A stretch of DNA of 61,280 bases, filler included, from Jimgerdemannia flammicorona (taxonomy: Eukaryota): assembly GCA_003990765.1 (NCBI GenBank). It is 2 parts of 2 records of this genome, joined end to end, with 100 filler letters (N's around TTAATTAATTAA, not from the genome) between each part and the next. Parts side by side here need not be neighbours in the genome. Positions count along the whole stretch, not along the records: positions 30,691 to 61,280 come from RBNJ01000437.1; 1 more part is not named here. One strand, 5' to 3'. Positions 7,766 through 60,281 of the stretch are shown one piece after another. The notes under the pieces were generated by a model. It did not search any database and was not told the DNA's origin. It saw only the letters and a list, made by a program, of their open reading frames with translations. Within the stretch, counting starts at the first letter, position 1. The number at the start of each line of letters is the position of its first letter. Position numbers and translations under genes: made by a program.

Positions 7766-9771
7766 TCAAGGAGGACTTAGAGCGAAGCTGGTATTTGAGA
7801 CGGCATTAAGAATGGTAAAACCATTCTTCCGGGCAATGATAGATTGCTGGGCAGTTGCAGGGAAACCAAAACGAAACAAAGCGGTACATAGAGTCTTGTG
7901 GGCTGTTGATATAGCCATCGGGCCATATCATACTAGATGACAAGTAATGGGAGAGGAAAAGCAGAGTGGGGAATAGGGGGGTGGGAAATAAGGGGAGGGG
8001 TAAGAAGTGAAGTTCGGACCTCAAGCCAATCAACCAAACTCAACTGAGCAGTTACAACATCAACAGGGTATCCTTTCCTGTAAACCAGGAACTCAGCTAG
8101 GAGCCGACACTCATCAAGCCAATCATGGCGAGATGAGCAGAGTAACGATAGGTGGTGGGCCTCATTCACAATGCATAGACGGAGCATTTTTCTAGGATGA
8201 TTACTCAACTAGTCAACAAACTGCGTACTACACATAAACTTAACAAAGCGGCCTGTGCAGAATGGTGCGACTCGGATTTTCAGGTCCAGATAATGGCATG
8301 GTCCAGCGGATAAGACTTCCCATTCAATACGATGATATGGGGGATATATGGCACCAAAGATTGCGGCCAAGTCCATAATCACAGGCGTAAAGACAATAAG
8401 ATCATCAATATACTGGCAGAACTTAAGCCCGGCTTTGATGGCTCGGCTTAGCAGATAGTCGGGCACTTGCAAGGCATGCAACTCATGAGCAAAACCAATG
8501 AGGTTGGCAAGATCCGGGGCACAATTTGTCCCCATAGCAACACCAGACACAGAGCAGAAGGAACCGATGGCGGATGTGAACATCATATGGGTCATGACAA
8601 TGCGGACAAGGCCGAGAATGGCTTCAAGCGATAAAGAGCCAGGGGGGAAGGCCACTGTTGATAAGTAGGTAAGGCAGTCGATGCACTCATCTAATGTAAT
8701 TCTGGTGTAGAAGGCAGCGAAATCCCCAGTAGCAACATAGTTACAATCTGACATGTCTAGGTAATCCGGTTGAACCAGCTGTAGCAGTTCAAGCATATCA
8801 TGTAGAGGTGAATAACGTGAATAACCCACATTATAGTGCAGATGGGCCAACCACAGGCAGAGAAAGTGAGATAGGAAATGTGAAATCTCAGTTGTGGGAG
8901 AGTTAAAAGCACCGATGATAGGACACCATGCCATGTGAGCCCCTTTGTGTACCTTGGGCAAAGCATGAAACACAGGCATCTTGCAATCGCTAGGCTCCAT
9001 GAGGTGTTCTCAAATCGGTATACAATTCTTGTCGCTAATGCAGAACTTGAGTAGACCCAACAGGTCTAACCTCACTGATTCCTTAACGTCATCAATCATA
9101 GAGGGATCATTCATGTATGCAGGATCATGAAGGAGAGACAGAAGACCATCGAGATAAAGAGCATGCAGAATTACAGCGAACCCCAGATTTTTGTCAGTAA
9201 GATAAACTGTAAAGTTGTCATGAGTATGGACACCTTCAAGAAGGTGTTGGAACTTCTTCGGTACAAGCGCACTGGACATATTCGTCATGGGTCAAATAGC
9301 TTGATTCAAAGTGGTACTCATATGGAGTATAATTTGCATATTTTCCATATAGTGTGGCAGTCGCCATTTAGATGGCACCCAGGCGGAGATCTCCAGGACA
9401 TCGTCAGGATTACCCATGGAGGTCCAGAAGGTGGCAAGGTCGAGACGCCATTGGAATGACAACAATGAAATCAGGTCAATGGTGCTGTTCATCGATGCCA
9501 ACCCAGGGAGAACAAACTTAGGACCAAAGTTCAGCATATATGTGAGCTTGGGGGTAAGCCAAGGTGGAGGTATATCTGTAACAAAGCCCTCCTCAGTAAA
9601 CATCTGAAACTGAGGGACAAAAAACTGACTTAAGTGAGAACCGGAAAGAGAAGACACAAAGGCAAAATCTTCAATTGGTGTCGAGGCCACTACCCTACAT
9701 GGAATGGAGACATTGGGGCCAAACCACGCTGCTGGGAAGTCATATAAGACATCCGGGCTGGGGACCTCTAG
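7766..9771 (-). pseudogene. PLE ORF2, reverse transcriptase (left copy; in-frame stops, one frameshift)
   Basis: ORF pieces 9292-9690, 9010-9288, 8209-9000 and 7933-8208 share one frame, separated by single stops. Confidence 0.85.
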
Positions 9772-17672: not shown

Positions 17673-20600
17673 CGCATCTCTTTCCAGTACCATTCAGGTT
17701 ACACAACCTTTGGAAGGTACTTTCGACATCGTTTTCGGCAAAAAGAGACTAACAACATGGCAACCGACAGGCAATCTGAGGTGCGTACTGGGCAGGGCGG
17801 CCCAAGTGCTTTCGGCTGGCAGTAGGTGGGGAGGGGGCCAGGCCTGGGGGGAGGTATGAGGGGCCTGCTGGCAGGTGGATGTGGAAGGGGTGGAGGAGGT
17901 GGTGGAGGATCAGGATCTGGGAGAGCAAGCTTCGTAGAGATGGTGAAGGGGAGACAGCAGGTGTCAGGGCTGGAGGGCTGGCTGAGGAAGGGCAAGGAGA
18001 CCGAGAAGGCGATAGAGCCAGGGGGTGCGGCCCTTGGAAGGGGGGGCAGTGGGGCTGCGGGAGTAGTGGCTGGGGGGGTGTGACTGCTGATGGTGTTGGG
18101 ACTGTTAATCTGGAAAAAAATCCAGATGTGATGGCTGATGGCGAGGCTGAGCAGCTAAGGCTTAGAAGACAAGGGGACTTGGCAGATAGTGTAATGGGTC
18201 TGGCGGTGGCCCCATTACTCAAGAAATCGATTTCGGCATTCGCGGTCACACTATGCTTCCAGGGCCTGGCGGTGATGGCAAAAATGGTGCTGGGGCTCAT
18301 CGCTAAGCAGGTGGCAGGTGTAGCATCTGTGAAGTTTTTGAAGGGACTGGAAGGAGTGGAGGTGGGTTTTGAGGAGGCGGCACTGCTGGAGGAGGTACTG
18401 AAGGTTGGATTGGTGGTTGGGGAGGTATGTATTCTGATGGCGCGGTGCCTGAAGTGGGACTCCAGGGTGGTCCAACTGCTGGTGAAGGGAGTGCCGACAG
18501 TGACAGCAATAGAGACAAGGAAGAGAGTTGGGGATTTCATGGCGGAATATGGTGAGGTGATAGATATCAGGTTCAGGGTCTGGGAAGGGACCTCGCTCAG
18601 GACTGGTGACGTGGATGTGAGGATTTGGCTGGCTGGGAAGGAAGCCACTGGGAAGGCAAGGGATTGGCCTTCAGCGATGGTCTGGGGAGCAATCCTATGT
18701 AAGGTGACAAGGGTGAAGGAGAGTAAGGAGGAGGAGGAGGATTTACTGGAAGCACTCGAAATGCTGGGGGGTGCTGTGGAGAGGTGAGCGAAGGCTTGGG
18801 AGGCTTTTGAAGAGGCGACACACTTGGAGGTGGTGGATGGAAAGTGGATTCGAGTGACCAAGGAGCAGTGGGAAAGGGCTCAGGGGCGTAAGAGGCAGAA
18901 GGAGTTGCTGGCCAAGCTGGATAGCGGACCACTGGGGGAGGTGAGCAAGGTGAAGGGCACAGGGGGAGCTGGAGCGAGTGTCTGGGCTGGCAAGGGGGAG
19001 GGGAAGGACAAGAAGGAGGTGGGGGAGGATAAGAAGAAGGCTGGGAAGGACCCGTATGCGGATAGTACACTGGAGGTGTGGGAGGAGGACTGGGTGGGCT
19101 CCCCTACCCCTACCCCTCTCATCAGGCATGGTCTGGCTTCCCAGAATAGGGTGGTAGAAGATGTGTCAATGCGAGGGGCCCAGAGGGTGCAATTCGGAGT
19201 TCCAGAGGTGGCATATGGGGGACAGGTGGAGGCGGATGGCGAGGAGGAACTGGTGGATGTCCCGGAAGTATGGGATGAGTCTACAAGTGCTGGAGCTGAC
19301 ACCACAATGTTGGATGGAGGGAGGCCGGCAACTCTGGGGGGGAAAGAGGTGGGGAACTTGCTTTAGATGTGCCAGATGATGAATAACCTGGTGGCGGAAG
19401 AGTTGGGGGAAGTGGACTTGCGAGTGATGAGTGATGAGCATTAGGCAGGAATACTGCAGAGGGATGGCATGATGAAGGCATTGAAGGTGGAAATTCTTGC
19501 AGTGTACCTGGAGGAGGAAGGATATGAGGTGGATAAGGAGAGGGAGGAGGAGATGGCGGTTGTTGCTGGAGAAAGGGCTGAATACTGCTGGAACAAGTGA
19601 CATAGACTATAGCTCTGGCAGAAAGCATGTATCGAATACTGAGAGGAGTTTGAGGAGAAGGCCGATGGTGAGATGAATGAACTGCTGGCTGGATTGGAGG
19701 CTCAGAGGGCTGAAGAGGAGGAGGTGGCTATGGAACATAATTTGGACAGGGCACAGGAGGAGATGAGCATGGAGCAGTAGAGGCAGATTGACGACATCAC
19801 ATATATCATCAATATAAACAGTACAACCAACATTTTCGCTTTGAATGTAAATGGGTTACGGGGCGCTTCTTGACGTAGGAACATTTTTACTTGGATGAAG
19901 GGATTGGAGGCCGATCTCTTCCTCTTGCAGGATGTCCGGTGTGAAGATGACTCTGATAGGTTAGAATGGACAAAGGAATGGGGAGGTGCAGCAATTTGGA
20001 AGGGCAAGGTTGGGATTTTGGTTAGGAAAGGCAGAGGGGAGATACAGAATGTGCAGTACTGGGGGGAGAGACTGGTCTGGGGAGAGTGGATTTGGGCAGG
20101 CTGGGAGCCAGTTACAGTTGGTTCCTGCTATTGCCCTGCAGTACGGAGTGAGAGGGTCGATTGGGTGAAAGGCTTACAGGAGAGTGGATTACTTGCAGAG
20201 GCCGGGGTGGATGTGCTAGGGGGAGATTTCAATATGGTTAGGGATATACTGCTGGATAGATCAGATGGAGGACAAGGTGCTGAGAGCAGGAGTGGAGGGC
20301 TGGTGGCATGGGAGGAAGTAGAGAGGCTAAGTACGCTATTGGATGCTGGAAGGGAGTGCTGGGGGAGTAGGAGGGTCTATACACATTGGGCAGGGGGTCT
20401 AGGGACTAGAATCGATTGGATTTTGACAGTCTGCTGCTGGGGACTAGATGTTTGGAAATCATTGGAGGTGGAATGGTGTCCATGGTCGGATCACTGGGGG
20501 CTTTTGGGACAGGGGTGCTTTGGGGGAAGTGGGGATGGGCCTGGACATTGGCGCCTCAATTCCTCTTTGTTAGATGACAAGACCTGGTGGGATGAGTGGG

Positions 20601-23545
20601 CTAAAGACATTCAGCTGAGGGTGGAGAACTGGAGGCAGGAAGGGGCCGCAGTTGGGACTCAGTGGATAAGGATGAAGGAAATGGCCAGGATTTACTGGAA
20701 GGAGGCTGGCAAGGAGGCAGGGAAGCAGCGAAAACAAAGAGTGCGCTGGGCCTCTGCTAGATTGATGAGGCTCCTGGAGGAGTGGGCAAGGCTGATGATA
20801 TTGGAGGGAGAAGAAGATTGGAGATTAATGAGGGCGAAAATGGAGGTTGGGGAACTTCAACAGGTGCTGCAGGAGGAGGAAGAGGCAAGGGTACAGATCT
20901 TGGCAGCACGGCTTCATTGGCAGGATCTGGAGGAAGGAGAGAGGCCTTCCAAGCTTCTTACAAGGGCCCTTAGGGCGAGGCGGGTCCAGCAACAGTGGGA
21001 AGGGGTATTGGACTCTGATGGTGTACTGGTGCATGGTGTACAGGACATTCTTGGATCGCTGAAGGAGAGATGGAGTGGATTGTGGAGTGAGGAGGAAGGT
21101 GGGGCAGATGCCACTACAATTGAATGAACATTGGAGGATTGGTACCCACCACAAGTCAAAGGGCTAGGGGACCTGATGATGCCTGTACAGGAGGATGAGA
21201 TCCACCAGGTTCTTGCCGCGACAACGTCCGGTATGGCACCTGGGGAGGATGGGCTGCCCTGGGACTTTTGGAAGCAAATGGTTGAAGTCCCAAGGGTGAT
21301 GGGAGAGATGACAGCGTTGTGTGACCTTATTCTACAGACAGGAAGATGGGTGGGGGAGCAGGACCTTGGGCTGGTGACGCTGCTCTACAAAAACAAAGGA
21401 AGGTGGGAGGATTGGAAGAACTGGCAGCCGATAATGCTGCTAGCTATGGACAGAAAGTTGGTAACTAAGGTAGTGGTGGCAAGACTACAGAAGGTGGCTC
21501 AGTAAGTCGTGGGTTTTGAGCAGAGGGGATTTGTGGGTGGTCGGCTCATCAGGGATGGCACTGCCTGGGTGTATAGCATCATCGAAGGGGCAAGGGCATG
21601 TGGACTGGATGGGCATCTAGTTTTCTTGGACCAGGAGAAGGCTTACGACCAGGTGCGGAGAGTCTGGCTGGAGAAAGTTTTGGATAGAATGGGGGTACTG
21701 CATCAATTCCAGTCAACAATGGTCAGCCTACTGGAAGGGAGTAGGGCTGCACTCATGTGTAATGGACATAGAGGGGTAGCATTCCTCTTGGGAAGGGGAG
21801 TGCCCCAGGGGGATCCATTGTCCCCCATTTTGTATGCTCTTTCCCTGGAACCACTTATGGACCGGATTAGGCGGAGGATAGTGGGGCTCTCTGTCTTTGG
21901 CATAGGATGGAAGGTTGGGGCCTTTGCTGATGATATGGTGGTGGGCTTGGGTTTGATTGCTGATGTTGAGGAGTTCAAGAGGACTGTGGAGTGGTATGAG
22001 GAGCATTCTGGAGCTAAGCTGAATTGGCATAAGTGTGAGATGATGGTGCTTGGTAATGGCCTGGTGGGAGGGGAGGTTATAGGAACAATTGTCCCTACCG
22101 GTGAAGTAGTGCAGTACTTAGGTATCTACTTGTCAGTCTATGGGTCAGTTCAGCCTAAGCTTTGGTGGGAGCAGAGGATTGGAATCTGGGAGGAGGCTCT
22201 GTGGAGTTGGGGGGGAAGACATTTTTCTCTGGCAGGGTGGGTCTCGATTTTGAATGTCTACTGGCTGCTAAAGTTGTGGTACCTGGCGTATCATCTGGAC
22301 TTCCCAGCCTAGATAGTGAAGAGATTGATGAAGTCGGCAAAGGGATAGATTTGGGCTGGCAGGCGGAGTCAGATTAGTTGGGAGACCTTGTCCCTACCAG
22401 TGACAAGAGGTGGTCTTGGGCTGGTTGACTTCCCAAAATAGTTACACTGCTTGAGAGCATGGTGGCTGAAGAGGGTGGTGGAGTTGAGAGGAGGTGGATG
22501 GGTTCCTCTGTTACAGAAGATATGGGAGAGGTGGGCATTGCCAAGGGGCTCAACTGGTGATCTCCTCTCCTTGGTTGGGCTTCAGAACACTGCCCAACTA
22601 TGATATAAAGGATTTTGTTGGGGAATTGCAGAAGGAGCGCACCGCATTGGCATTTGTTGGCAGGGGAATAAAGGTGAGGAGGATTGGGACCCAGTAATGT
22701 GGAGATGGGACCGTATACTGCTGGGTGGTGCTCCTTTAGTTGAGTTCGACATTGGTGATAGAATGGAATGCCAAAGGGGACCAGGCCAGGATCTGTGGCC
22801 TAGTGGTTGGCAAGGAGTTGGAATTGGTGAAGAGTGGAACTGGCATAGTATTTGGACCTGGTGCGCTACAGTGAGAGCATGGCTGCCACCAAAGTACTGG
22901 GTGGTCTGGTGGCGCATGCTGTGGAGGAATGTTATGCTCAATTTTCGCTCAGGGCACCTGGTTGTAGGGGGTTGCTTCGACTGTGAGGAGTGCCATAATG
23001 TAGGGCAGGAGGGGGGTTACGTACAGATGCCGGAACATTGGCTGGGAGAGTGTGAGGTGTTGGGGGATTTTTGGCAGACAATTGGAAATCACCTAGGGGT
23101 ACGGGGTAGGAGTGATGAAGTACAGGGGTGATGGGAGGACTTGAGGGTTAGATTGGTAGGGGGGATAGGGAAGGAGTGGCTTACTTTAGGTTGGGCTTTG
23201 GCAATTTGGGTGGGGTTGGCCAGTCATTGGCTATTTGTTTTTGAGGATGAGAGGAGGCAGAGCTTGGGGGACTGGCTGCTGTGATGGCATAGGCTTATGG
23301 AGGATACCTTAACAGGCTGGTGGCTGGGTTGGGGGATGCGGGGTGGTCGGAGGCACCGCTTGGTGGAGAAAATCTGTGGGCAAAGTGGGGGGAGAGTGGG
23401 GGTGGTTGGTGAAAGGGTGATTTTCATTCGTGAGGAAGTAGGGAGGGGCCCCCTGGTGGGGATTGGATAGTGGGTCAGAATGATGTATATTTATTCATAG
23501 ACTGGTAATAAAGACGGAGTCCAAGTGACTATAAAATAAAAAAAA
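17673..23545 (+). mobile_element. Full-length L1/Tx1-like non-LTR retrotransposon (~5.9 kb), decayed
   Basis: ORF1 from ATG 17757 to ~19780. ORF2 has APE motifs (LNVNGL, GGDFN, RIDWIL, SDH), RT motifs (APGEDGLP, FLDQEKAYD, GVPQGDPLSP, AFADD) and a C-terminal CEEC..H..C. Poly-A tail. 16-bp TSD GATAAGATTCTATTTG at 17657-17672 and 23546-23561. Confidence 0.95.
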
Positions 23546-30690: not shown

Positions 30691-32874
30691 AAAAAAAAAA
30701 AAAAAAGAGTTCAATCTAGAGTATAAGGTAGTAGATAAGAGAGTATGCCAGAGTTTGTAACTTCTTATTAGCTACAGGGGGGCTATCTTGAATAGTCTGA
30801 GTAGAGCAAAGACTAGCAGAGTTAGCAGAGGAAGTATACAGAATTTGCAGCCCTCTACTAGCAGTAAGGAATAATCTCAAGCTATCAGTTGATGAGAAAG
30901 TCTAGGTTAAAGAGAGTATATAAAATTTGTAGCCCAATAACTTACTGTGAGAAGTAGCTTCAAGCAGTTAGATTCTAATATAAATTTGAGCCCCATAGAT
31001 ACTCTGGTTCCACAAGCATCCTGGTCCTATACTATAGTACTATACTAGCAGTACTATAAAGTAGAGTCAAGAGGCTGATAGAGTCTGGCAAAAAGCTAAA
31101 CTAATACTATAAAAAGAGGTACCTGACTGCTTACCTAACCTTCACAAAAGACTGTCTAACCCTTACAAAACTGCTCTATCTGCTGATCTCAGGCCTTGAT
31201 GAGCCTATTATCTATTATAAGTATAATAACTATAGTATCTGAGCTCTTCTTAAAGGTAATAGTACTATAGAGGTCATGTGGTTAGAATAGGATAGTTGTG
31301 TTGACTGCAAACAGAACTCTGAAACTATAAGTAAAGTTGTATTAGATACTACTACCATTCTCTCAAGTTGGGTTCTTTCTTTCTGGAATATAAAATATTA
31401 TCAGAGTAATATTATTATCTGTATATATAAATAGAGAAATATTATACCTAATATATCCTAATATGATATAAGTATATAGTTGGGTAAACTCTTAGCTCAG
31501 AACCTCATATTGTCAGATAGTACTGAAGAATATCTACTCTTCATCAAGCCCTAGAAGTCTCAGCTTAGAAATCTGCTAAAATAGACAGTATTTAGTCAAA
31601 TTCTTCCTTTTTATATATAAGAGACAGAAACTCTTGAGTTGCATAAAAAAAAAAGTCAAGCTCCTCACTTTATATAGTATACTAAATTATATCAAGAATG
31701 TATATATATAGCTATACTAAGAATACCACTAAGCTGATCTACTGTTTAGTCTAGCAATCTACTCAAAGAGTCCCAAATCATGGCCACCATTACTGTATAG
31801 ATCATATCATACTAATATATAGCTTATTCTTCAACAGTACTTTTAAAGTTCTAATAAGAAAATAGAATCTTATATATCTCTGAAAATTTAACAAGAATAG
31901 GTTAGTAAAAAAAATATCAAAAAAGAAGAGACAAATATAGAGGATTTCAGAAAAACCAATATTATGATATATCTAATTTCTGTCTAAACCCCCCCCCTCT
32001 TTACTTTTTATACTCTCTCTTTCTCACTACTTAGTATTTGATACAATCCTTACAAATCTTATTAATATAGTGATGAAGCTTATCACTATAGAGATTCTTT
32101 ATCACTATTACAACTACCTCTTTATAATTATTAACAATGATATAGTTCTCTTCATTATTAAATACTCCAGTAGGCCAATAGGCTTCTTGATCAAGAATCA
32201 TTAATTTCAATTTAAATGTAGACTCCAAAGCTTTGATAGTAATGCTAGTATTACTCATACTGAATAACTTGTTCTTAAACTTCTCTATTTGATCAGATAC
32301 TAGATATGATTGAACTTGAGTAACTTTGAACTCTCCTCTGTAGTGAAACTGAGTCTTGATCTGAGTAGTGAGCTAAGTTAAGTATGTGGATAAATTATAT
32401 ATAAGTATTGTATAGAAATTTTTAGAGAAAAATATATAAAAATGAAGTTAAATAAAATATAAAGTAAGTATTCAGAAAAGAGCATAAAAATGAGTTATAT
32501 ATAGATGAGTTATATAAGATTGCTCACAAAGGCTTACTTCTGATCCTTTTGAGATCTCTGCCATATAATATATTGACTCAATAGCTCAACTACTAAAGAT
32601 ATGTCTCATAATATTTTCCAGCCTTTTGTCATCTTGACCAGATATTATAAATAAAGTTAGCAGATCTTACTGTAGAGCTGTGAATCCTAAGAAAAAGAGA
32701 ATAGTATAAAATAAATTTAGTCATATTGTGAAAATTTAAATATAGTGGCAAAAAGGTAACTTATATCTACTATCAGCTATTCTAAAAAGACTACTATATA
32801 TATAGCTATAAGGTCTATAAATTCTGAGATCTGAAGGGTTATCATAAGTTGTTGCCAGAATTCTCTCTCATTCT

Positions 32875-47900: not shown

Positions 47901-49330
47901 GAACACACACCTCCCCAACCACCAACCCAACCCTCAGTGCCTCCTCCAGTGGTTTGACCTCCTCAAAACCCACTTCTACTCCCTCCAGTCACTTCAGGAA
48001 CTTCACCAAAGCTGCTCCAGCCACCTGCTTAGCGATAAGCCCCAACACCATTTTTGCCATCACTGCTAAGCCCTGGAAACACAGTATGACTGTGAATACC
48101 AAGATCGACTTCTTGAGTAATAGAGCCACTGCCAGTTCCGTTACACTATCCGCCAGGTCCCCAGGCCTCATACCCTTCCCACCACTCGGCTTGCCATCAG
48201 CAGTCCCATCTAGATTTTTTTCCAGATTGCCCATTACACCCCCATCAGCAGTCCCCGCCCCAGCTGCTATCCCCCCAGCTCCACCCCTATGACCTTTCAG
48301 AGAGGTGCCCTCAAGAGGTTGCTGCCTGGTAGCCTTCACCGGTACCTTTCCCCCTCACAGCCAGCTCTCCAGTCCAGCCCCTTGCTGACCCCCCTTCACC
48401 TTCTCCGCAAAGCTCACTCTGCCAGACCCTTGACCTCCAGCTCTGCCCCTTCCTCCACTATAGCCTCCCACCAGTAGGCCCCTCATACTACTCTCTAAGC
48501 CAGGGCCTCTCCCCACTTACTGCCATTCAAATGCTCCAGGGCTACCCTGCCCAGTACGCACCTCCAGATGCTCGTTAGTTGCCATAATACTAGTAGCTTT
48601 TCTCTAGAAACTGTGTCGAAAGTGTTGCCCAAAGATTGTATAACCTGAATATTACCGGAGAAAGGTCTGTTGTCACTTCTATCTCTTGCAAGATTAAGGC
48701 TGTCCTTGGTAGTGGTAGTTGTACAAGGATAACAGGTCTTGGTTCTCTTTTTTTTTTGGTCTGCTGGCACATTTGCAAGGACTGGCCATCCTTGTCTAGG
48801 GCAAGGACTCCCAATATCGCAGCTGGGGGTTTGAACCTCTCAGAAATAATATTTTCTATAATCCAAGACAATTTTTAGTAGTAATATCTATCATATAGAT
48901 AGCTTGAGATTGGTTTCAACAATGTCAGCTTTCTTGAGTTCAGATGAAGCATCTGTCACTCTCCAATGAAGATAACACAGATAGAGCGAACAGAGTTGTT
49001 CAAATATATTTTGCTTCTGCTAAGTAATGAGATCTTATATAGTCATAGTGTATCTTGGTCTTAAGTTGATAAGTACAATTCATGAACCTTTTGATGGATG
49101 AGATAGGGTTCTTCTTGTCTTGATTTGAGTTTGGTACTTTCGGTTTCCTTTTGTAATAGTACAGTATACCAAACTAGTTATAGAGGTTCAAAGTCAGTCT
49201 TATGGTTATAGTACTTCTTCTGGTATTCTTGTATCTTGGCAGAGAGTTCTTGTGCTTGCTGACATATTTTGTGTAACCAGATGATCTCTTCAGTAACTTG
49301 TTTTGTAGTCTTACATGTGGTTTCCAAATT
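41980..49330 (-). mobile_element. Gypsy 3' LTR (family B) plus integrase-end fragment, interrupted by a LINE
   Basis: Starts TGTAA and aligns with 6398-6975 and 16050-16510. ~48765-49310 aligns with ~27700-28290. Confidence 0.7.
42789..48669 (-). mobile_element. Second full-length L1/Tx1-like LINE (same family as 17673-23545)
   Basis: Homologous ORF1, EN and RT. Poly-T at 42787-42807. TSD TCACTTCTATCTCTT at 42774-42788 and 48673-48687. 5' end matches the first copy. Confidence 0.95.
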
Positions 49331-50029
49331 AGTTCTGAGGATAACATATGATTTTGGTGGCTTAGAGGTTGTATGCTTACAAGCATACTTCTATTTTATA
49401 TAGGCTAGAGATAGTTATTTCAAAAATGTTTAAATATTAGTCATCTTTATTAAATCTAATTTCTTACTATATTTTCTGTTTTCTATTATGAACTATCAGC
49501 ATAGCTTACTGAATGTCTTCTGCTGTCTCTAATAGTACTGAAATAGTAGTCTCTACTATTTTTCATTAAAAAACTATATAATTATCTTATAGTTTAAGAG
49601 AATATATATAATAAAATAAGTCAAATATAGTAGTGCTCAGAGTCTTAGATGATAACATATGATCAAGCATAGCTTATACATATTTATAAATTCTTAGCTA
49701 TCTATATTTCCTATAGATACTATATGTAATTTCACTCTATTATATAGTAGAAATTTTATATTAATATATTATACTTTATATATTATAACTATTATCACCT
49801 ACTATAATAAATATATCTATTATATCTAGATTAATATTTTATAAATAGTTATAGAATAGATCTAGTCTAATATCTATAGCTATCTTTAGTATTATAAGTT
49901 CATTAGTATACTTAGGCTGGCTAAAGAGAAAGTTGATATATAGCTGCTCTATATATTACTTTTGACAATATTGTAGAAGTAATACATATTATATTATCTA
50001 TATTATAGTCATTAAGCTAATACTTATAC

Positions 50030-50910
50030 TCTTAATGAATTAAATCAAAGATCTAATTCAATTTGATTCAAATTAAATTAAAGTTAAAATATAATAACTT
50101 GACAAAAATACATCTAAATTTAATAACTTTTAGCTTATTAAATTTCTCTATATATATAAGAGAAATCTAATAAGCTAAAGATTATTAAATTTGAATATAT
50201 TTTTATTAAGTTATTATATTTTGAAAAATATAATTTAAATCAGATCCTTAATTTAATTTGAATTTGATTCAATTTGAACTTTATTTAAATTAAAAAATTC
50301 TTAATTCAATTTGATTTGATTCAAATTGATTTAATTTATTTAGGAGTACTAGCTGATACTAATTTTTGAGAAGTCAAATATTACTCAGAAGAGCTCTTTA
50401 GTTATGAAATACTTATTCTTATATCTGATATATTAGAAGAGACAGATAAGTATCTGTTTGTCAATCTTGATATATATACTACTGCTAAAAGAAAAAGAGT
50501 AGATAAAATATATATAGATAAGTACTTGATACATAATATTATATATATCTTAGAGTAAAAAGTTTAGCTTAGATTTTTATTCATATATTTTAGATAAGCT
50601 TATATAGATAAGTATAAGATATCTTTAAGAGTTTTTAGATATAAATCTCAATAAAGGTAAGTTAAATAGTAATTTAGAATATAGTTATATATATATATAG
50701 TTAGTGCTCTGAATGAGTCAGTTCAAACTTATTCAAATTGTGACTATTCCTAATTTGAACTGATTTAAATTAATCATATGATCAATTCAAATAAGTTTGA
50801 ATTGTGACTGCTCTGATCCAAACCTCCAAACTGGTAATTTATATTACCAAATTCAAATCACTAAATTTGAATTACTAAATTTAAATCATCTAATTTAAAT
50901 TCTGTAAATA
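50030..50910. mobile_element. Degenerate hAT-like termini (GGAGTACTA at 50343-50351; TAGTGCTC at 50702)
   Basis: TTCAAAT/TTTGAA-rich subterminal repeats adjoin the terminal motif. Confidence 0.4.
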
Positions 50911-51013
50911 AATAAAACTTATTATATAATTTACTTATATATATAAATAGAGAAATGTGAGAGAAAAATATTCATTAATATATTTACAAATACAAATGTG
51001 AATATATATATAT

Positions 51014-51014
<1 letters not shown>

Positions 51015-51060
<46 letters not shown>

Positions 51061-52249
51061 GACTCAGAGTCCTGCAGATTTTTATTAGAAGAAAACCTAA
51101 ACTATATAGGCAAAAACTCTCCTCTATCATCTATTGAGCACTGCTCTCTCATTAAATCTAGGCTAGCTATTATCTAGTAGCTTAACTATACTAGGTATAG
51201 TAGGGCCTAATATGATCCATATCTTATTCTGTATACTATGCTCTCCCTACTACTAGAGAGAACTCAAATATATACCAACAACTGAAAATATATATCCAAA
51301 ACTCCAACATATATGCAAGGCCATATTTGAGCTAAATAGAATAGCCTCTGCTACTCTAAGTAGAATAATAGGTAAATAAAAACCCTCCTCAAAGTACAGA
51401 ATAGTAGATAAGACCTAGTTTTCTTAAGTGAGATAAGTTAGTAAGCTTCTTAGTGAGTATAGTTTTGACATAAGTGACTATTTTTGGATAGTATTGGATT
51501 AGAAGAAGAGATGACTATTATAAAGAGATAAAAGGGTAATTATAATAAATTAGTTAAATATTAAACTAGTAATAGTTATTAGAGTACTATAAGTACTATC
51601 TTAGTAAGGTCTTTTTATTGGCTGACTGAGAGTGGAGTAGTATAGGAACTGGTATTTTGACTATACTCAACTAAAATTAGAAGCTAATATGATAATATAA
51701 TTGAGGTCTATAGACTTAAAGAGTGAGATATTCTTTTTAAGATAGTACCTAATCAGAACTAAGAGCTAATATAGCAATATAATTGAGGTCTATAAGCTTA
51801 GAGAGTAAGATTGGGATCTTTTCAGACCTTAGCTCATATATATATCAGTTCTTTTAGAGGGGGGGGGTTTCATATAAGTTTTTACTTATCTATCTTAAAT
51901 CTATTTTACTTTTTATTAGTTAGTTAAGAGTTTTTTTTTTATCTTTAGCTTTGATTTGAAGTCTAGAGAACTATTTTTTATTCAGTTTCAACATTACTAA
52001 ATCTGATATATAGGTGTGCTCTCATAGTAAATGGGCTAATAATTTAGCCCTAGTGAGTAGATAAGTCTGATCTATATATATATAATGAGAGAGTATATAT
52101 CTATTATATATAGCTAAAATAATAGAACTATTAAATAATTTGATATCTTAGATTAATAGAAGGATAATACTCAAGAGGAGGAGTGGGGGAGGGTTTTGGC
52201 CTATATAGTCTAGGATTCCTTCTAATAAAAATTTGTGAAAACTTAATTC

Positions 52250-52288
<39 letters not shown>
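51015..52288. mobile_element. Two diverged poly-A retroposon 3' ends in opposite orientation
   Basis: The reverse complement of 51058-51120 resembles ~52190-52253 (GCCTATATAGT.TAGG.TT.CTTCTAATAAAA). Poly-T at left, poly-A at right. Confidence 0.6.
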
Positions 52289-52290
<2 letters not shown>

Positions 52291-53034
52291 ATAATTTAAT
52301 ATATTATATAAATTAAAAAAAGTTCTTTATAACTTTAAAGTCAGAGTATTGCTATATTTATATATTAATATATATTGTGAAGAAATAGAAATTCAAAAAA
52401 GGAGATAAAAATGAAACATAGTCATGTGATCATATCTAAGCCACAATTCCTCGGATTTGGTGAGAATTTGTTTAAAAAAATTAATTACTATAAATATAAA
52501 AGAGAATAATAATAAAATCTCTCTGTAAGATTAATATCAAAAGGGGTTTCTGTTGATCTATGGATTTTTTTAAACTCATTGCTAGAAATAGAATTTTTAA
52601 TGATTATAGACGTGGAGCACTAGTCTAGCGAGTTTGACAGTCCCTCCCCAAGCCATATTGGGCGAAATGAATTGGACTGTTGGAAAAGTCACCCCTTCTC
52701 TCATACCATGGAAACCTCTCAAGGGCTCGGGGCCGACAACATATTCAATACACCCCAACGACAAGACCCTGCCAGTGTCGCCGGCCAGAAATGTGAGTTC
52801 AGCTTCACTAACATTCTTGCAACCTGGAGAACAAAACAAAACCGACGGCTCTCGTTACTCACCTTTCACAGTCGCGGCTTCTTTTAGCCCCCGGTTAGAA
52901 CCCATCTCCTTCTCATCAAACAATACTCTTTCGCCCTTGCCCCTACCACGCTCACCAACACCAACAATACTCCTTCCACCCCGCTCTCGCTCCCCTCCTT
53001 TTCCCCCTTCTCCCCTTCATCTCTGCCACCAACA

Positions 53035-54642
53035 ATGCTAGCGCTTATCCCAAAACCTGTGTCGACCCCCATGTTTGGCTCCAAAATCAATTTCTCACCA
53101 CCCGCCTTCACACCCGCCTCACCACCCGCCTCACCACCCGCCTCCCCAACAGCCTCCGTCATGTTTGCGTCGCCGGGATCCTCGTCCGCGCACGATTTTA
53201 GGAAACCAAAAATGCGCCACGCAGAGACGTGGCCACGCAGGTCAAGATCAAAACCGAGGTCGAGGTCACGCAGTCGATCAAGAAGGATGAACAAAAGCGA
53301 TATGGATGAAAGTGGCACAAGCGAAAACAAGATTGGTTTGTGCATGTACGCCCTAAAAACGATCGCAGGATATGGTCGCAGTTTTCTGACTCACATTTGT
53401 GCCTCTTCATACACAATTGCTAGGTATATTTTTTAGGCGATTAGGGGAGATTGGCGATAGGGTGGTGTGAGGGGGATGGGATGGTAATATAAATGTAATG
53501 TACCATTTCGTTCTTTTTCTTCTCGTACGCGCCTTCCTTTTTCTAGCTACGTCGTCCCTCCGATTATGGTTATGCTATTATTTATAATAATTCGGAGGGA
53601 TTTTTACGTGAAGGTCGAGGAGCAATCGAGCGGTATATATACTTATTAAAGCTACGTACTCAAAAAGGGCATGTTTTTGTTATTTACCTTTCCTTATCAA
53701 ACCATTTCTCCTACATACATATATATATATATATATTGCGCACCAAAATCAAGAGATTCTTCAAAATATCGCTCGGTGCTCCAAGAACTACTTGGAAAAT
53801 GAATGTGCTAATTCCCCCGTGCCGGGTATGAAAGAAAAATGCAGTAGGTGGGCTTCCTGTATGGAACAGGACCCGACTAACGTGAAGTGGTATGTATTTT
53901 TAATGCAGCTCGTCTGGCTACCCCTCCAACCACATGTCTGGTTTTTCGATTCGATCTGTATTCAGTTGACAATGCAAATTCTGTTGCTTTGATTGTCGCA
54001 GGGCCAAGGCGTTGTTTGAGACCTTTGGGGAAATTATCAACGGCTTCGTCGAGCCTATGTCCAAGAAGACCATGGTGAGCTTTCGTCGTTTTTTGACTCC
54101 CGGTATTAATCCTCTTTTTATCCATCATACCCAAGCAATCTCGCGGAATTCTGACTCTCTCTCTCTCCTTCCCGGTATTTAAAAAAACACTACAGATTTT
54201 TTCCTTCCTTCTCCTCATTTGCTATATCGCATTCCGTATCTTCCGCTCGTGGCATTATTCCCATGGGAGCGCCAGCTACCACCCCCCAAATAACATGCAC
54301 GGTGGCATGGGCTCTGGCATGCATATAGCGGGGACGCCGGTAGGGACGCCGATGGGGATGCCGGTGGGGACGCTTATGGGGGCGCCGATGGGGACGCCGA
54401 TGGGGACGCCGGTGAGAACGCCGATGGGGACGCCGGTGCATAACTACAAGGGTGAGCTGCTCACGAGGTGCCAGCGCGCGGGCATACCGGACCCAAAGTA
54501 TACCGTTAATAAGGAGGGACTGCAGCATGCGCCGCAGTTCGAAGCGGAGTGTAGGGTTGGCAACTATATAGGCAGAGGCATCGGGAAGAAGAAAATTGAG
54601 GCCGAGCAGTGTGCCGCAAAAGATGTGTTGCAGACTTGGTAG
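53035..54642 (+). CDS. Brr6/Brl1-family nuclear-envelope protein fused to a C-terminal dsRNA-binding motif; 5 exons, ~376 aa
   Basis: Exons 53035-53423, 53547-53632, 53754-53889, 54002-54074 and 54196-54642, all GT-AG with consistent phases. Spliced product: TM - RDFYVKVEEQSSEILQNIARCSKNYLENEC..PVPGMKEKCSRWASCMEQDP..AKALFETFGEIINGFVEPMSKKTM - TM - (GTPM/V)9 - NYKGELLTRCQRAGIPDPKY..G..HAPQF...GKKKIEAEQCAAKDVL. Confidence 0.85.
54331..54438 (+). repeat. 12-bp coding minisatellite, 9 units (GTP[M/V])
   Basis: GGGACGCCG(A/G)TG units in the linker before the dsRBD. Confidence 0.9.
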
Positions 54643-57600
54643 ACGGGGTGCCGGTGCTAATGAGTATATCTAGTTCATCAATACCACTTTGTTATCTGAG
54701 CTAAACAGTCACGCAATTCAGTTTGCTTCCTAAGTATACCCATATTTATTTACTGTTCAATGTGGCTAATAATGGCTGACGGTCCCTCTGGTTATTGATG
54801 TCAATGTGCACGTCTTGACGAACATTACTCTTTGTCCTCTTTGTCCTTTTTATCCTGTCTTGTGTTGCTCCCTTTTTTCCTTGCTTTGCGTTTCTCCTTA
54901 TCATTTTGCAAGGTTCCTTTTCATCTTGCCTCGCAATGTTCTATTTCATATTACCTTGCCTGATTCCTTTTCATCCTGAGATTCTATAAAAATCCTATCT
55001 CCAAACTCTTCTTTCTCCCATCAAGCATACTTGGTCGCTGACACAGCGGCGTTCATCCATCTCTACAATATCAATCATGTTAACCCAGGCCTCCACCCGA
55101 GCAATATCACAAGAATATAAACACACAGAAACAATGGACAGTCATCTGGGTCTACGAGAAGGACGCGATTACCTCCTGCGATAACTAGATAGGAGGCCTC
55201 AACGTCTGCTCCCTAAATCCTGGCGTCCACTATGGAGTCAAGATAGAGATATTAATGATGTCCGCGGGGTCGTTCTCCGGGCTTTACTGGATGGAGCTGT
55301 CCCTAGGGACACCAGTTCAACATATGATGATTAGGTAGTATGGACTAGTAATGGCCAATTATATCCATATGAGTCTGACTCAGACTATAAGTGTGTCCAC
55401 AAGTGACATCATAAAACCTCGTTCTTGGTACTAAACCAGACACAACTGGTGCAGATTTGCATTTCGGTTGTTCTTGTAATGAGTAATATGAGTCATGATT
55501 ATATTTCACGGGAATACATGAATCATCCACTGAGTTGAACTCGAAATCAATTGTGGAAAATTAATTTGGAGGTTTGGGTTCTTGTCATTGATTATTTTCC
55601 AAGCCTTTCCTCTCATATCTCTAAAAAAATTACAATACTTCTTATGAACTTTGCCACTTGGTGAAAACGTGCTTCTCATTGCTGCGGTTGAGTTCGTCGA
55701 TTGCAGCCAACTTGTTTTTGCAGAAGTCAAGGCATCTCATTTGTAGGCAATTTTTGTGGAGTCCATAAGGTTGCGAGCTGAGAGGGTCGTCATTTCTTCA
55801 TGTTGCAGACCCCACCGCCATATCAGAGTGCCAAATCCCCCAAATCATATTGACCGAACGCGAGAAAAAATGGCTGTTCTGGCTATTACACTTCTCACGT
55901 GGCCAAATTCCGACGTAGTTCTATCGTTTTGCTCTTCCGTGTACAACGATTCATTTGCGGAGCATGGGGCCCGCCTCCGGGTCCCGTTCCCAGTTTATAT
56001 TGTTGATAGGGTGCATAAGTGGTTTATATGTTTACCAGGCATTCTATCGTCATTCGGCATAAGACATTCCCCTATCGACGTATGCGAGACCATATTTCGC
56101 ATAATTAGTGATTGTATAGGCGATACCGCTAGGCCAAGAAACGTATTATTTTGTTTCAGGAGTAGAATTACTACGTGGAAGTATTTGAAAAGCCTAGATA
56201 CTACTGTCAATCCCTTTGGGGGAGCACGAGATGCACTAAAAATGAGATGCATCGTCAGCTTAGGCGCTCGAACTACAGGTAATAAACAAGGCTACGCATA
56301 CACAAATAAGTATAGCAACGATGTGAGCCACACTTTCATTGGCGCGATGAACAACACTCCCCAATGTTGTAGCGGAGAACAGGCTCCTCGTTGACTAGAA
56401 CTCTGGCTGCCAGTTTGGAAAAGTACCGAGAGATCCCAACACCAATATGCTTCTGCTTGCTGTCACCCTTGGCGAAGGGAGAATGATAATTCAATGGCCA
56501 AGATGTATAAATCATAAATCACGCCACGTGCTGCTGTCAAAATCCTGGGGTTGTGTATCCGTCGCTCATCTTGTGTTCATCCTAAGCAGGCAATATTGTT
56601 ATGGGCAACTCAACTTTGAGAAGTGACGGGAGGTCCAAGGAATGGGTCCCACGCCCTCGTTATTTGACCGGAGCAGACAATTCTGGCACAGTTGTGCAAT
56701 AATGTATTAACTAAGCAAAGCAGGTGGTCTGCAAATACCAAGTGACCGGGAGGGGCGGCAAAAGGAACTATTCCTCCCCAATCCCTTAGCATTCGTTACT
56801 GGTATATATATATTGGCCCCATTTTGAAGGCAAAAAACATTGGCAGTGAGATTACAACCTATTGCAATGAAAGCCCCTATCCCCAAACCTCCCACTCACT
56901 CCGGCGGTCAATGGTGAGTTTGATAAGATTCTTCTGAGATCGATGTTGACAAAGTTCTATCAATGGAACTTAACTTGCAGCTCCTTGCATTTTTCTCCAT
57001 ATTTTTTAGCACATGGTGCGGAAAGTATGGCCATACGCGCAACAACTGCGCGTTGCTAAAGTCTAAGTAGCACGATGTGGCCGATCATTCAATACAAGAC
57101 TTCACAAACACGAGAGTCACTACAAACTTTCAATCAACAAGGAATCGGTGATTTAGGGAAAAAAATAAAAAAGAGAGGTCAAATTCTCTTGGTTTGCCCA
57201 CGCAACCACACCTTTGAAGAATCCAAGACCGACCCATGTATGAATTCTTCAAGCTGTAGCTAGTTACTCTTTACCCCAAATAAATGACAGTTGACGTAAG
57301 ACATAAATCGCCCTGTCGTTTAGATATTCTCACGCCAGAGAACCAAATATTCTGTAAGAAATATATCATGCTGGAGGAGCAATAAAGAGCGAGAGTGAAA
57401 ATGACATTAAACAGATCTCTGGTTGAGCTTAAGGTCAAGGGACTATCGGTGGGTTGGAGATAAACTCAGAGGGGATTATTGCAGAGTGCGGAGGGTTTAA
57501 GACATAGGCGACGTAGAAGCGGTGCGCCTTAGTAAGTGGCATGTTGCAAGATGAGGAGCTATGGCCTTGTAGAACAATGGGGCTTCGCCTTCTGAGATGC

Positions 57601-58560: not shown

Positions 58561-60281
58561 TCACTCTAGATCTGCAAAAAAACCTCCCATGTCCCTGGTC
58601 TTACCCTTCTTCCCCTTCTTCCCTCTCTTTCCACCCTTCTCCTCTTCCTCCGTCGTCTTCCCCTTTCTCTTCTTCCTCCCTTTATCCTCGTCTGAATCCC
58701 AATCACTATCGTTCTTCACCCTCGCTTTCCCACTCGCCTGCGCCGACGCGGGAACACGTTCCTCCTCTTCTTCCCCCCCCTCCGGATCCTCCTCTTCCTC
58801 CTTCTCCTCTCCCTCCTCAAACAACCATCCCACATCCCAAAATCTAACCGACAAATCATGCGAGCAACTCCCCAAAAACCTCCGATCGTGCGACAGCCTC
58901 ACCCTCTCAATCGGGAAATCCTCCCCGTGATCACCTACCACCCCGTGGAACGAGTTCGGCAGCACCCCTAGGATCCGAATCAGCCCGTCCGACGACCCCG
59001 TCGCCACCGTGTCCTCGTCTAGTCGGCACACCGTGTCCACCGAGCTAGGGTGGCCCAGGAACCGATCTGACACGTCGCCCCAGTCGCCCCATGTCCATAG
59101 GCTTAGAACGCCTTCCTGCGAACCTACAACGGCTTTTTTGCCGGATTTGAGGAGTGTGACTGATAGAAGCTCATCGTCTTGATTGTCGGACATGGCAACT
59201 AGTTTCGGTTTACGGATGTCCCAGACAGAAAGGAAGCCATCGCCGCTGTAGTGTTGAGAGGACGGCGGAGGGGAAAGTAATGTGGGTACATGGAGGGTAA
59301 GTGATGGCAAGAGTGTTTGGGAGAGATGACATGTGGGGTTCATCAGGCTGTCTTAGCCTAGTACCAAGAGAGGTCAGCACCCAAAACAAGGCGTAATCCG
59401 ACAAAGGTAAGACAAGTACTTACCCGACGGCCACCAATGTCTTCTTCTCTGGCGAGAACGTCATATCCGCGATGAAGTCCTCGTGCTCCGTATACGTCTG
59501 GACTTCCGTCTCCTTGCGCGCGTCCCAAAGCTTTATGTCAATTGTCAAATCGCGCTGTCAATATCGAGATCAAGAGTATGAGGACGCATATCATTAAAGA
59601 AATTCGAACCTTTATGACACCCGCGTCGTCGCCTGTCGCAATCATGTACTCATTGAGGCAGAGGAAGGAGTTGATGGGGTTCCTGAGGAAGTGGCATGGT
59701 ATACATGGGTTAGGGAATTGTGAGGCGAGGGGGGAGGTTAATATAAAAACCGGATGAACGAGGATAACTCACTCATGGGCGTCGGTTCTCTTGATTGTAA
59801 CTTTGCCTGTGTCAACATCGATGGATTGGAGGGATTTGTCTTTGGATATGCTGAAAAGAGCTAATGGGGCAAAGTGGACAGAAGACTGCATGCTCAGTCT
59901 GGGTCGTACGTTTTGAAACTCGGGATCAAGACCGAGAGGAGAGGTACCTCCGTCAAAGAGAGAAGAGACTTGCCTGCACCGTCATGGCTGAACTCCAACC
60001 CCCGGCACGATTTTTTGTGCGGCCGTACTGAGAAAAGCTCGACAGTTTCGTCGATGCCATATCGATAGCTTTGTCGATGATGTAGAGGGAAAAGGTCGAT
60101 GTTGGTTTCGGCGAGCTTCGGAAAGAGACAGTGCTAGGTGTGACGAATGGACTCACCAGTGAACATGGCCATTGATGAGTCCGGCAGCTATAATGTTGTC
60201 TGCGGGATGGAAAGCGAAGTCAAAAACGTGGTCCTTGAATTCGAGGTTCGGGGGTTGGGTCGGTTCTGCGGGATCAGCCAT
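58561..60281 (-). CDS. JIP5: WD40 protein JIP5/WDR55 (ribosome biogenesis), 6 exons
   Basis: Exons 60281-60157, 60068-59974, 59860-59773, 59682-59610, 59530-59424 and 59245-58561. Motifs FDFAFHP, HKKSCRG, ATGDDAG, SDNQDDELLS, WGDVSDRFLGHP and C-terminal FFADL. Confidence 0.93.

Follow-up and report, generated by a model that had tools for sequence, protein, structure and literature searches.

Can a protein of the Brl1/Brr6 family, whose members belong to the nuclear envelope, end in a double-stranded RNA (dsRNA)-binding domain (dsRBD), and is a gene of this kind transcribed into an mRNA from which the protein could be made? This question is raised by a locus of Jimgerdemannia flammicorona (assembly GCA_003990765.1). 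The locus is on the plus strand of a stretch of 61,280 nucleotides, filler included, which was analysed as a whole and is called the window in this text. The window consists of two joined parts, and positions 30,691 to 61,280, which include the locus, come from RBNJ01000437.1. An initial annotation of positions 53035 to 54642, made from the sequence alone, had proposed that a Brr6/Brl1 domain and a dsRBD are encoded in one reading frame. Pfam matches for both domains, the predicted fold of the dsRBD and spliced transcript contigs bear out this proposal: genomic sequence and transcripts both show the Brr6-dsRBD fusion to be real, and within a known family it forms an architecture of which the searches made found no description.

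A Brl1/Brr6 domain and a dsRBD in one reading frame

The stop-to-stop open reading frames (ORFs) at the locus are disconnected pieces, and the gene region (52,600-55,000) is a GC-richer island. Donor (GT) and acceptor (AG) sites close to where they were expected were searched for, the ATG at 53035 and the stop at 54642 being held fixed. This GT..AG enumeration gave open frames for 24 combinations, among them the exon set of the initial annotation (53035-53423, 53547-53632, 53754-53889, 54002-54074 and 54196-54642, numbered below as exons 1 to 5), which encodes 376 amino acids. Its introns measure 123, 121, 112 and 121 nt, with a GC content of 0.28-0.42 versus 0.53 in the exons, and the exons are free of any frameshift or internal stop. 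Hydropathy analysis reveals two segments of the size of a membrane helix, one across the exon 1/2 junction (TM1) and another that opens the last exon (TM2). TM2, a repeat linker and the dsRBD are encoded in one stop-free exon, so the Brr6-dsRBD fusion needs no splice. Translation thus upholds the earlier claim that the fusion does not depend on a doubtful junction.

The Pfam scan was run exon by exon, not on the joined translation, with cut-offs of 25 bits for PF10104 and 23 bits for PF00035. Exon 3 (53754-53889), which encodes the luminal four-Cys core of the Brl1/Brr6 domain, matches PF10104 (Brr6_like_C_C) by itself, with an E value of 1.2e-12 and 48.2 bits over profile positions 42-84 of 133. 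Exon 4 reaches 22.9 bits at profile positions 90-112. Exon 2, the frame of the first intron, the end of exon 1 and TM2 alone gave no Pfam match, these pieces being too short, and no family was matched by the translation of 53035-53421. Neither domain has a second copy in the window.

In this family, four conserved luminal Cys make up two disulfide pairs. All four Cys of exon 3 are intact, in the spacing C-x8-C-x11-C-x5-C (CSKNYLENEC, 11 residues, CSRWASC). A PDB sequence search with this Cys-loop exon retrieved no relative. The motif given for S. cerevisiae Brl1 is C-x8-C, 12 residues, C-x5-C, and the window protein resembles it in the Cys spacing, in YL.N.C and in the Trp after the third Cys (bioRxiv 10.1101/2025.07.21.665908). 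The loop at the luminal tip is P-G-M within ANSPVPGMKEK, as placed by a by-eye alignment to the quoted yeast motif only.

Exon 4 (54002-54074) encodes a predicted luminal amphipathic helix, with an 18-residue hydrophobic moment of 0.56 and a mean hydrophobicity of 0.34, the second highest window in the protein. This segment sits directly before TM2, a position that fits the essential luminal amphipathic helix described for Brl1 (PMC9402233). TM2 (54196-54264) is clear from hydropathy (1.5-1.9) and from its modelled helix (exon residues 2-23). Most of TM1 (VVPPIMVMLLFIII) and the start of a long luminal helix are encoded in exon 2 (53547-53632), where hydropathy windows reach up to 2.37. The about 20 hydrophobic residues of TM1 are obtained only across the 53423|53547 junction, which the contigs of neither transcript run show.

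The C-terminal module (54445-54633), followed by the stop codon at 54640-54642, is a canonical dsRBD. The last exon matches PF00035 (dsrm) with an E value of 7.7e-12 and 46.1 bits, exon residues 84-146 covering profile positions 1-64 of 66. Both families that the initial annotation expected, Brr6_like_C_C and dsrm, were therefore found above their cut-offs. A sequence search of the PDB with the dsRBD led to Staufen1, Loquacious and TARBP2 (E 4e-6 to 3e-4). The last exon was also modelled with AlphaFold2, using an alignment of 33 rows as input. The dsRBD is predicted to adopt an alpha-beta-beta-beta-alpha fold, with helices at residues 84-95 and 133-147, strands at 101-109, 112-121 and 124-130, and a predicted local distance difference test score (pLDDT) of 95-98. 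When this model was compared with the PDB by Foldseek, 76 matches were obtained at E <= 0.001. All those listed are dsRBDs, many of them, including the top hits, solved on dsRNA, and examples are 1di2_A (TMt 0.89, root-mean-square deviation 0.8), Loquacious, TRBP and Aquifex RNase III.

The His of the loop between strands 1 and 2 (H111) is nearly invariant across the 33-sequence alignment. Helix 2 starts with KKKIEAEQ, which aligns with KKIEAEQ of the relatives, the KK..AE stretch being conserved. The loop His and the Lys pair of helix 2 are the usual dsRNA-contact positions of dsRBDs, in which such positions are named by region. A role in the dsRBD has been described for the basic residues of "region 3" (PMC8136814). 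The fold can thus be considered canonical, and RNA binding is predicted from the kept contact residues and from the RNA-bound structural matches.

TM2 and the dsRBD are separated by a (GTPM)n linker (54330-54435) made of GTPM and GTPV units, which at the DNA level is a tandem repeat of a 12-nt unit in 8.8 copies (Tandem Repeats Finder score 142). The linker is predicted to be disordered: the mean pLDDT of exon residues 21-80 is 49-66 per 10-residue block, and 17 residues are in runs below 50. The linker and the dsRBD are also covered by an antisense open frame of 159 codons (54190-54669, minus strand) rich in HRRP repeats, which in all likelihood is a side effect of the tandem repeat and no gene.

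The occurrence of the same architecture in other organisms was searched for in different ways. An exhaustive HMMER search with the last exon covered 1.84 billion representatives and yielded 248 hits (E <= 0.001); the best 150 of them were examined. The Brr6 part, sought with phmmer in these best 150 of the 248 hits plus 2 cluster members, was found in 0 of 152 (best E 2.9). A homologue search with the last exon among longer proteins produced 361 candidates, none of which reached a score. A word-based search with exon 3 among longer proteins gave no candidate with enough common words, the Brr6-side direction being weakly tested in this way. Metagenome scans produced 169 pattern matches for the last exon and 185 for exon 3 with four flanking codons on each side, none of which was confirmed, and the ESM Atlas returned generic PF10104 and dsrm clusters only (scores 0.75-0.78). 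No published description of a Brr6/Brl1-dsRBD architecture was found in the literature search. The earlier statement that this architecture is undescribed therefore holds for the literature searched and for the 152 dsRBD relatives examined.

Among the matches listed, the closest relatives of the dsRBD are the C-terminal dsRBDs of RNase III-domain proteins from Jimgerdemannia (Endogonales), including RUS14784.1, RUO95691.1 and RUO95477.1 of Jimgerdemannia flammicorona itself, alongside close relatives in public assemblies. The window dsRBD is 41-57% identical to these relatives over about 75 residues, with NYKG..LT.CQR, HAP.F and KKIEAEQ.AAKD in common. Two relatives that end in a dsrm also match Ribonuclease_3: P0044 scores 35.4 bits, and P0026, at 26.3 bits, narrowly misses the cut-off of 27 bits. 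In tblastn searches against the window, P0026, P0044 and P0003 match only the dsRBD (54433-54633), and Ribonuclease_3 was not matched by Pfam on any exon translation of the window gene. The gene thus has the dsRBD in common with the Endogonales RNase III-domain proteins but not the RNase III domain, whereas the Brr6 part is present in none of those proteins examined. Mucor R3B2, which combines RNase III and dsRBD, has an architecture like that of the Endogonales relatives. However, the label R3B2 was rejected for them because this protein is reported to be restricted to Mucorales (PMC8136814). Other relatives of the dsRBD include the bacterial proteins P0006 and P0010, in which RNase III domains and dsRBD stretches both occur twice, and P0110, a protein of 142 amino acids with an N-terminal hydrophobic segment before the dsRBD, possibly another membrane-tethered dsRBD.

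Spliced transcripts of the locus

The transcript data are assembled contigs from two public runs, X1 and X2, whose coordinates carry the +1 shift of the tool. Both runs are taken as RNA since their contigs skip three GT..AG introns exactly. Each of the two runs provides one long contig (1481 and 1301 nt), in which the pieces 53153-53631, 53753-53888, 54001-54073 and 54195-54800 are adjacent. The four-Cys exon is bridged at both flanking junctions in X1 and X2, and the amphipathic-helix exon is connected in both runs by the joints 53888>54001 and 54073>54195. Of the four GT-AG introns proposed initially, introns 2, 3 and 4 are therefore exact in both runs, whereas intron 1 (53424-53546) is retained and spliced in neither. 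A single contig spans the N-terminal, Brr6 and dsRBD exons and the 3' untranslated region (UTR; 54643-54800 and extending past 54800, the contig cover of this part being 54195-54800), so all of them are on one spliced molecule.

Compared with the window, the X2 contig shows five differing positions and one indel, which indicates that X2 does not come from the same strain. One of its differences, at 53814, changes Ser to Phe in the tip loop between Cys 2 and Cys 3, the place of the yeast PAL motif.

Short contigs reveal alternative splicing at the 5' end. Position 52792 is joined either to 53153 or, through a micro-exon of 6 nt (52888-52893), to 53042. With regard to the micro-exon, the loose end of an X2 contig reads the exon ending at 52792, then 52888-52893 and then 53042 onward, and an X1 contig joins 52893 to 53042. 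These junctions from 52792 put the ATG at 53035 inside an intron, so that the start codon of the initial annotation had to be abandoned. The first coding exon is now placed at 52708-52792, with the revised start ATG 52708 in the context ccATGg and the donor GTGAGT after the exon; going upstream, the first stop in this frame is met at 52621.

The N-terminal exon occupies 53042-53423 in the long form, where the micro-exon is paired with the acceptor before 53042 and the frame is kept, and begins at 53153 in the short form; the corresponding contig pieces start at 53041/53042 and 53153. It contains a Pro-rich stretch, a basic stretch rich in Arg and Ser (RS-rich; about 53236-53286) and, at its 3' end, the first residues of TM1. 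The Pro-rich stretch is a 12-nt tandem repeat (53094-53156) present in the long form only, the short form skipping a Pro-rich segment of about 39 residues. Both splice forms are in frame with ATG 52708 and give 365 amino acids (short) or 404 amino acids (long, with the Pro-rich repeat added). Since both keep the frame from this ATG into the Brr6 frame, the N-terminal ORF appears to be coding and meant to continue.

Further observations concern the 5' region. One contig retains the intron 52793-52887, which holds an in-frame stop. ATG 52667 was rejected as a start because neither splice form puts it in frame, and its own frame ends after 87 or 126 amino acids. This upstream ATG (52667-52669) would open an overlapping upstream ORF of 87 or 126 codons, depending on the transcription start. 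Directly upstream of the gene there is a spacer of about 3.7 kb (about 48900-52600) with 17-29% GC and long T runs, and its position ahead of the locus was counted in favour of an independent gene.

The retained intron and the possible readings of the locus

In the reading that we prefer, and to which we give a little better than an even chance, the gene is genuine and transcribed, and its productive mRNA encodes an envelope protein of the Brl1/Brr6 family with a dsRBD on a tether that holds dsRNA or a partner at the membrane. The product, of 365 or 404 amino acids depending on the 5' splice form, would start with an unstructured N-terminus that is basic and RS-rich and continue with TM1, a four-Cys helical domain in the perinuclear space that includes the amphipathic helix, TM2, the linker and the dsRBD. 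The disordered (GTPM)n tether of about 60 residues would let the dsRBD hang off the nuclear or pore membrane and, given the family topology with extraluminal termini, the domain would face the cytoplasm or the nucleoplasm. RS regions are possibly RNA- or import-related, and the RS-rich N-terminus could be a second extraluminal feature of the protein. The membrane core would work like Brl1/Brr6, that is, in the fusion of inner and outer membranes at sites of pore assembly, and the added dsRBD would hold dsRNA, or a dsRBD-binding partner, at that membrane, with a possible role in RNA surveillance. The roles suggested initially (surveillance of dsRNA or of transposable-element transcripts, export control, coupling to RNA interference) are hypothetical. 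The most likely source of the dsRBD is the lineage's own family of dsRBD-ending RNase III-domain proteins, and retention of the intron 53424-53546 probably limits the output of full-length protein.

Several observations weigh against this functional fusion. The first is the intron of 123 nt at 53424-53546, which is contiguous in both long contigs (53153-53631) and joined across in 0 of 2 runs. The retained sequence introduces a stop (53437-53439) after 122 amino acids, so that translation would reach neither TM1 nor the two domains. Although the contigs neither end nor splice out before the dsRBD exon and run on into the 3' UTR, the majority transcript observed cannot give rise to the Brr6-dsRBD protein. 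Rare variants may be lost from contigs, but the alternative 5' junctions survived as separate contigs, and an intron-1-spliced form is therefore at best minor in both runs. Translation of the retained-intron mRNA from a downstream start was considered and rejected, since the frame of exon 2 opens at 53488 and its first ATG is inside TM1. Moreover, no orthologue or other bearer of the Brr6-dsRBD architecture was found among the proteins and metagenomes searched. The by-eye alignment places P-G-M in the tip loop where the PAL motif is found in yeast Brl1/Brr6, a motif reported to be essential at the luminal tip (PMC13043894). Lastly, three of the four exonic differences between X2 and the window are non-synonymous; they give no sign of purifying selection, the number being too small to weigh.

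Different features indicate that 53424-53546 is a real intron, the removal of which we infer. Its donor, GTATAT, is that of the confirmed next intron, and its length and low GC content are like those of the confirmed introns. Its removal completes the TM1 of about 20 residues. The PF10104 profile leaves about 12 positions upstream of exon 2, position 42 being the first residue of exon 3. In addition, the N-terminal ORF, whose frame is kept by both 5' forms, would have no continuation if this intron stayed in. The YTRAY branch-point motif is absent from the retained intron and also from the confirmed intron 2, so it does not discriminate.

The main rival to a functional fusion, which we regard as unlikely although it has to be taken seriously, is a chimeric paralogue that is young, confined to the lineage and for the most part non-productive: a duplicated Brl1/Brr6 gene would have captured a dsRBD piece in a transposon-rich genome. 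It would be transcribed, but with an mRNA that mostly keeps the stop-containing intron it would yield little or no fusion protein and have no selected function. The stop-containing intron kept in two of two long contigs, the failure to find an orthologue in the searches made and the non-synonymous strain differences (3/4) all favour such a paralogue, as do the retroelement ORFs of the window and the two tandem repeats within the coding sequence. However, the Brr6 core still reaches 48 bits over 43 profile positions with its four Cys intact, the dsRBD is intact and has conserved contact residues, no exon has acquired a frameshift or stop, and both alternative 5' forms keep the frame. Intron retention is also common in fungi, and contigs reveal the majority path only. 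If most fungi have a single BRL1/BRR6 gene, as reported in bioRxiv 10.1101/2025.07.21.665908, the locus could even be the only, essential copy. Should the gene prove to be a rarely spliced paralogue found in this lineage only, it would count as a gene-birth curiosity rather than as a new mechanism.

It is improbable, in our opinion, that the fusion protein is made but uses its dsRBD for protein contact or localisation, for example to bind a nucleoporin, import factor, RNase III or Dicer partner, and not to bind RNA. Such uses of dsRBDs have precedents: the dsRBD of human Dicer acts as a nuclear localisation signal (PMC3753931) and S. pombe Dcr1 is found at pores via contacts with pore components (PMC7464478). 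The nearest relatives of the window dsRBD are, besides, terminal domains of RNase III-domain proteins. On the other hand, neither the loop His nor the KK that opens helix 2, the usual positions of dsRNA contact, has been lost, and the structures that match best are those of dsRBDs in complex with dsRNA.

A more far-reaching proposal, which must be considered quite improbable, is that this gene encodes the only Brl1/Brr6-type fusogen of the organism, one to which a dsRBD is permanently attached by a long tether at the pore membrane. In that case pore biogenesis, or the pore membrane, would be coupled to the capture of exported dsRNA, which might be transposon, viral or RNA interference (RNAi)-pathway RNA, and regulated removal of the intron would act as an on/off switch. 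Finally, that two neighbouring genes (one Brr6-like, another with a dsRBD) or an assembly join were misread as one is scarcely credible and already contradicted: although the initial model was built by eye and its start codon and first intron have no transcript support, no stop separates TM2, with which the Brr6 domain ends, from the dsRBD in their common exon, and the contigs of two runs, one differing at five positions, span the last exon and its splice to the amphipathic-helix exon unbroken.

The window contains other features outside this locus. LINE-like (long interspersed nuclear element) retroelement ORFs are present at 19874-22312 (plus strand), where an ORF for an Exo_endo_phos endonuclease precedes a reverse transcriptase (RVT_1, E 1.2e-21), and a weaker RVT_1 fragment is located on the opposite strand (8212-9009, minus). 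An exon of a WDR55/JIP5-type WD40 gene lies at 58564-59352 (minus strand). In a search among longer proteins, the best named relatives of this WDR55-type ORF are from Bifiguratus adelaidae (54% identity) and Linnemannia (Linnemannia zychae, 67% over part of the length). Together with the relatives of the dsRBD, they make a source within Mucoromycota likely.

Comparison with Brl1, Brr6 and other proteins of the pore membrane

Brl1/Brr6 proteins are now viewed as membrane fusogens of nuclear pore assembly (PMC9402233, PMC13043894, bioRxiv 10.1101/2025.07.21.665908). Their N- and C-termini are described as extraluminal, and the earlier proposal that both termini of the window protein are outside the lumen fits this topology (PMC9402233, PMC13043894). 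In its unstructured N-terminus, its four-Cys perinuclear domain and the amphipathic helix before TM2, the product of the locus would resemble both S. cerevisiae Brl1 and Brr6 and the single Brr6 of S. pombe. It would also share with them two membrane helices, although here TM1 depends on the removal of an intron that the contigs retain, and its N-terminus differs in being RS-rich.

The main difference is found behind TM2. The C-terminal tails of the yeast proteins are reported to have 42 (Brl1) and 15 (Brr6) amino acids and no domain, and to be swappable without loss of function (PMC13043894). The tail of the window protein, in contrast, has about 125 residues and a predicted folded dsRBD. The shortness and swappability of the yeast tails make an added C-terminal module plausible. 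If the preferred reading of a functional fusion is correct, this would be the first integral envelope protein of the Brl1/Brr6 family with a nucleic-acid-binding module, in a family whose cytoplasmic or nucleoplasmic tails have so far been thought short or nucleoporin-binding. It would also offer a direct means of asking, in early-diverging fungi, if the pore membrane can be linked to RNA surveillance. The locus illustrates as well the probable recruitment of a domain from RNase III-type proteins of the lineage.

Two other proteins offer partial parallels. CLCC1, the metazoan structural counterpart of this family, is likewise involved in pore assembly, and its two membrane helices flank a luminal amphipathic helix; it differs from the window protein in that no dsRBD is described for it in the available text of the preprint (bioRxiv 10.1101/2025.07.21.665908). 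S. pombe Dcr1 can be compared by functional analogy only: this RNAi enzyme, which has a C-terminal dsRBD-type domain, is held at the envelope or pore by means of pore components, and its location matters for silencing (PMC7464478). While Dcr1 is a soluble protein, in the Jimgerdemannia protein the dsRBD would be covalently attached, with no nuclease, to an integral protein of the membrane.

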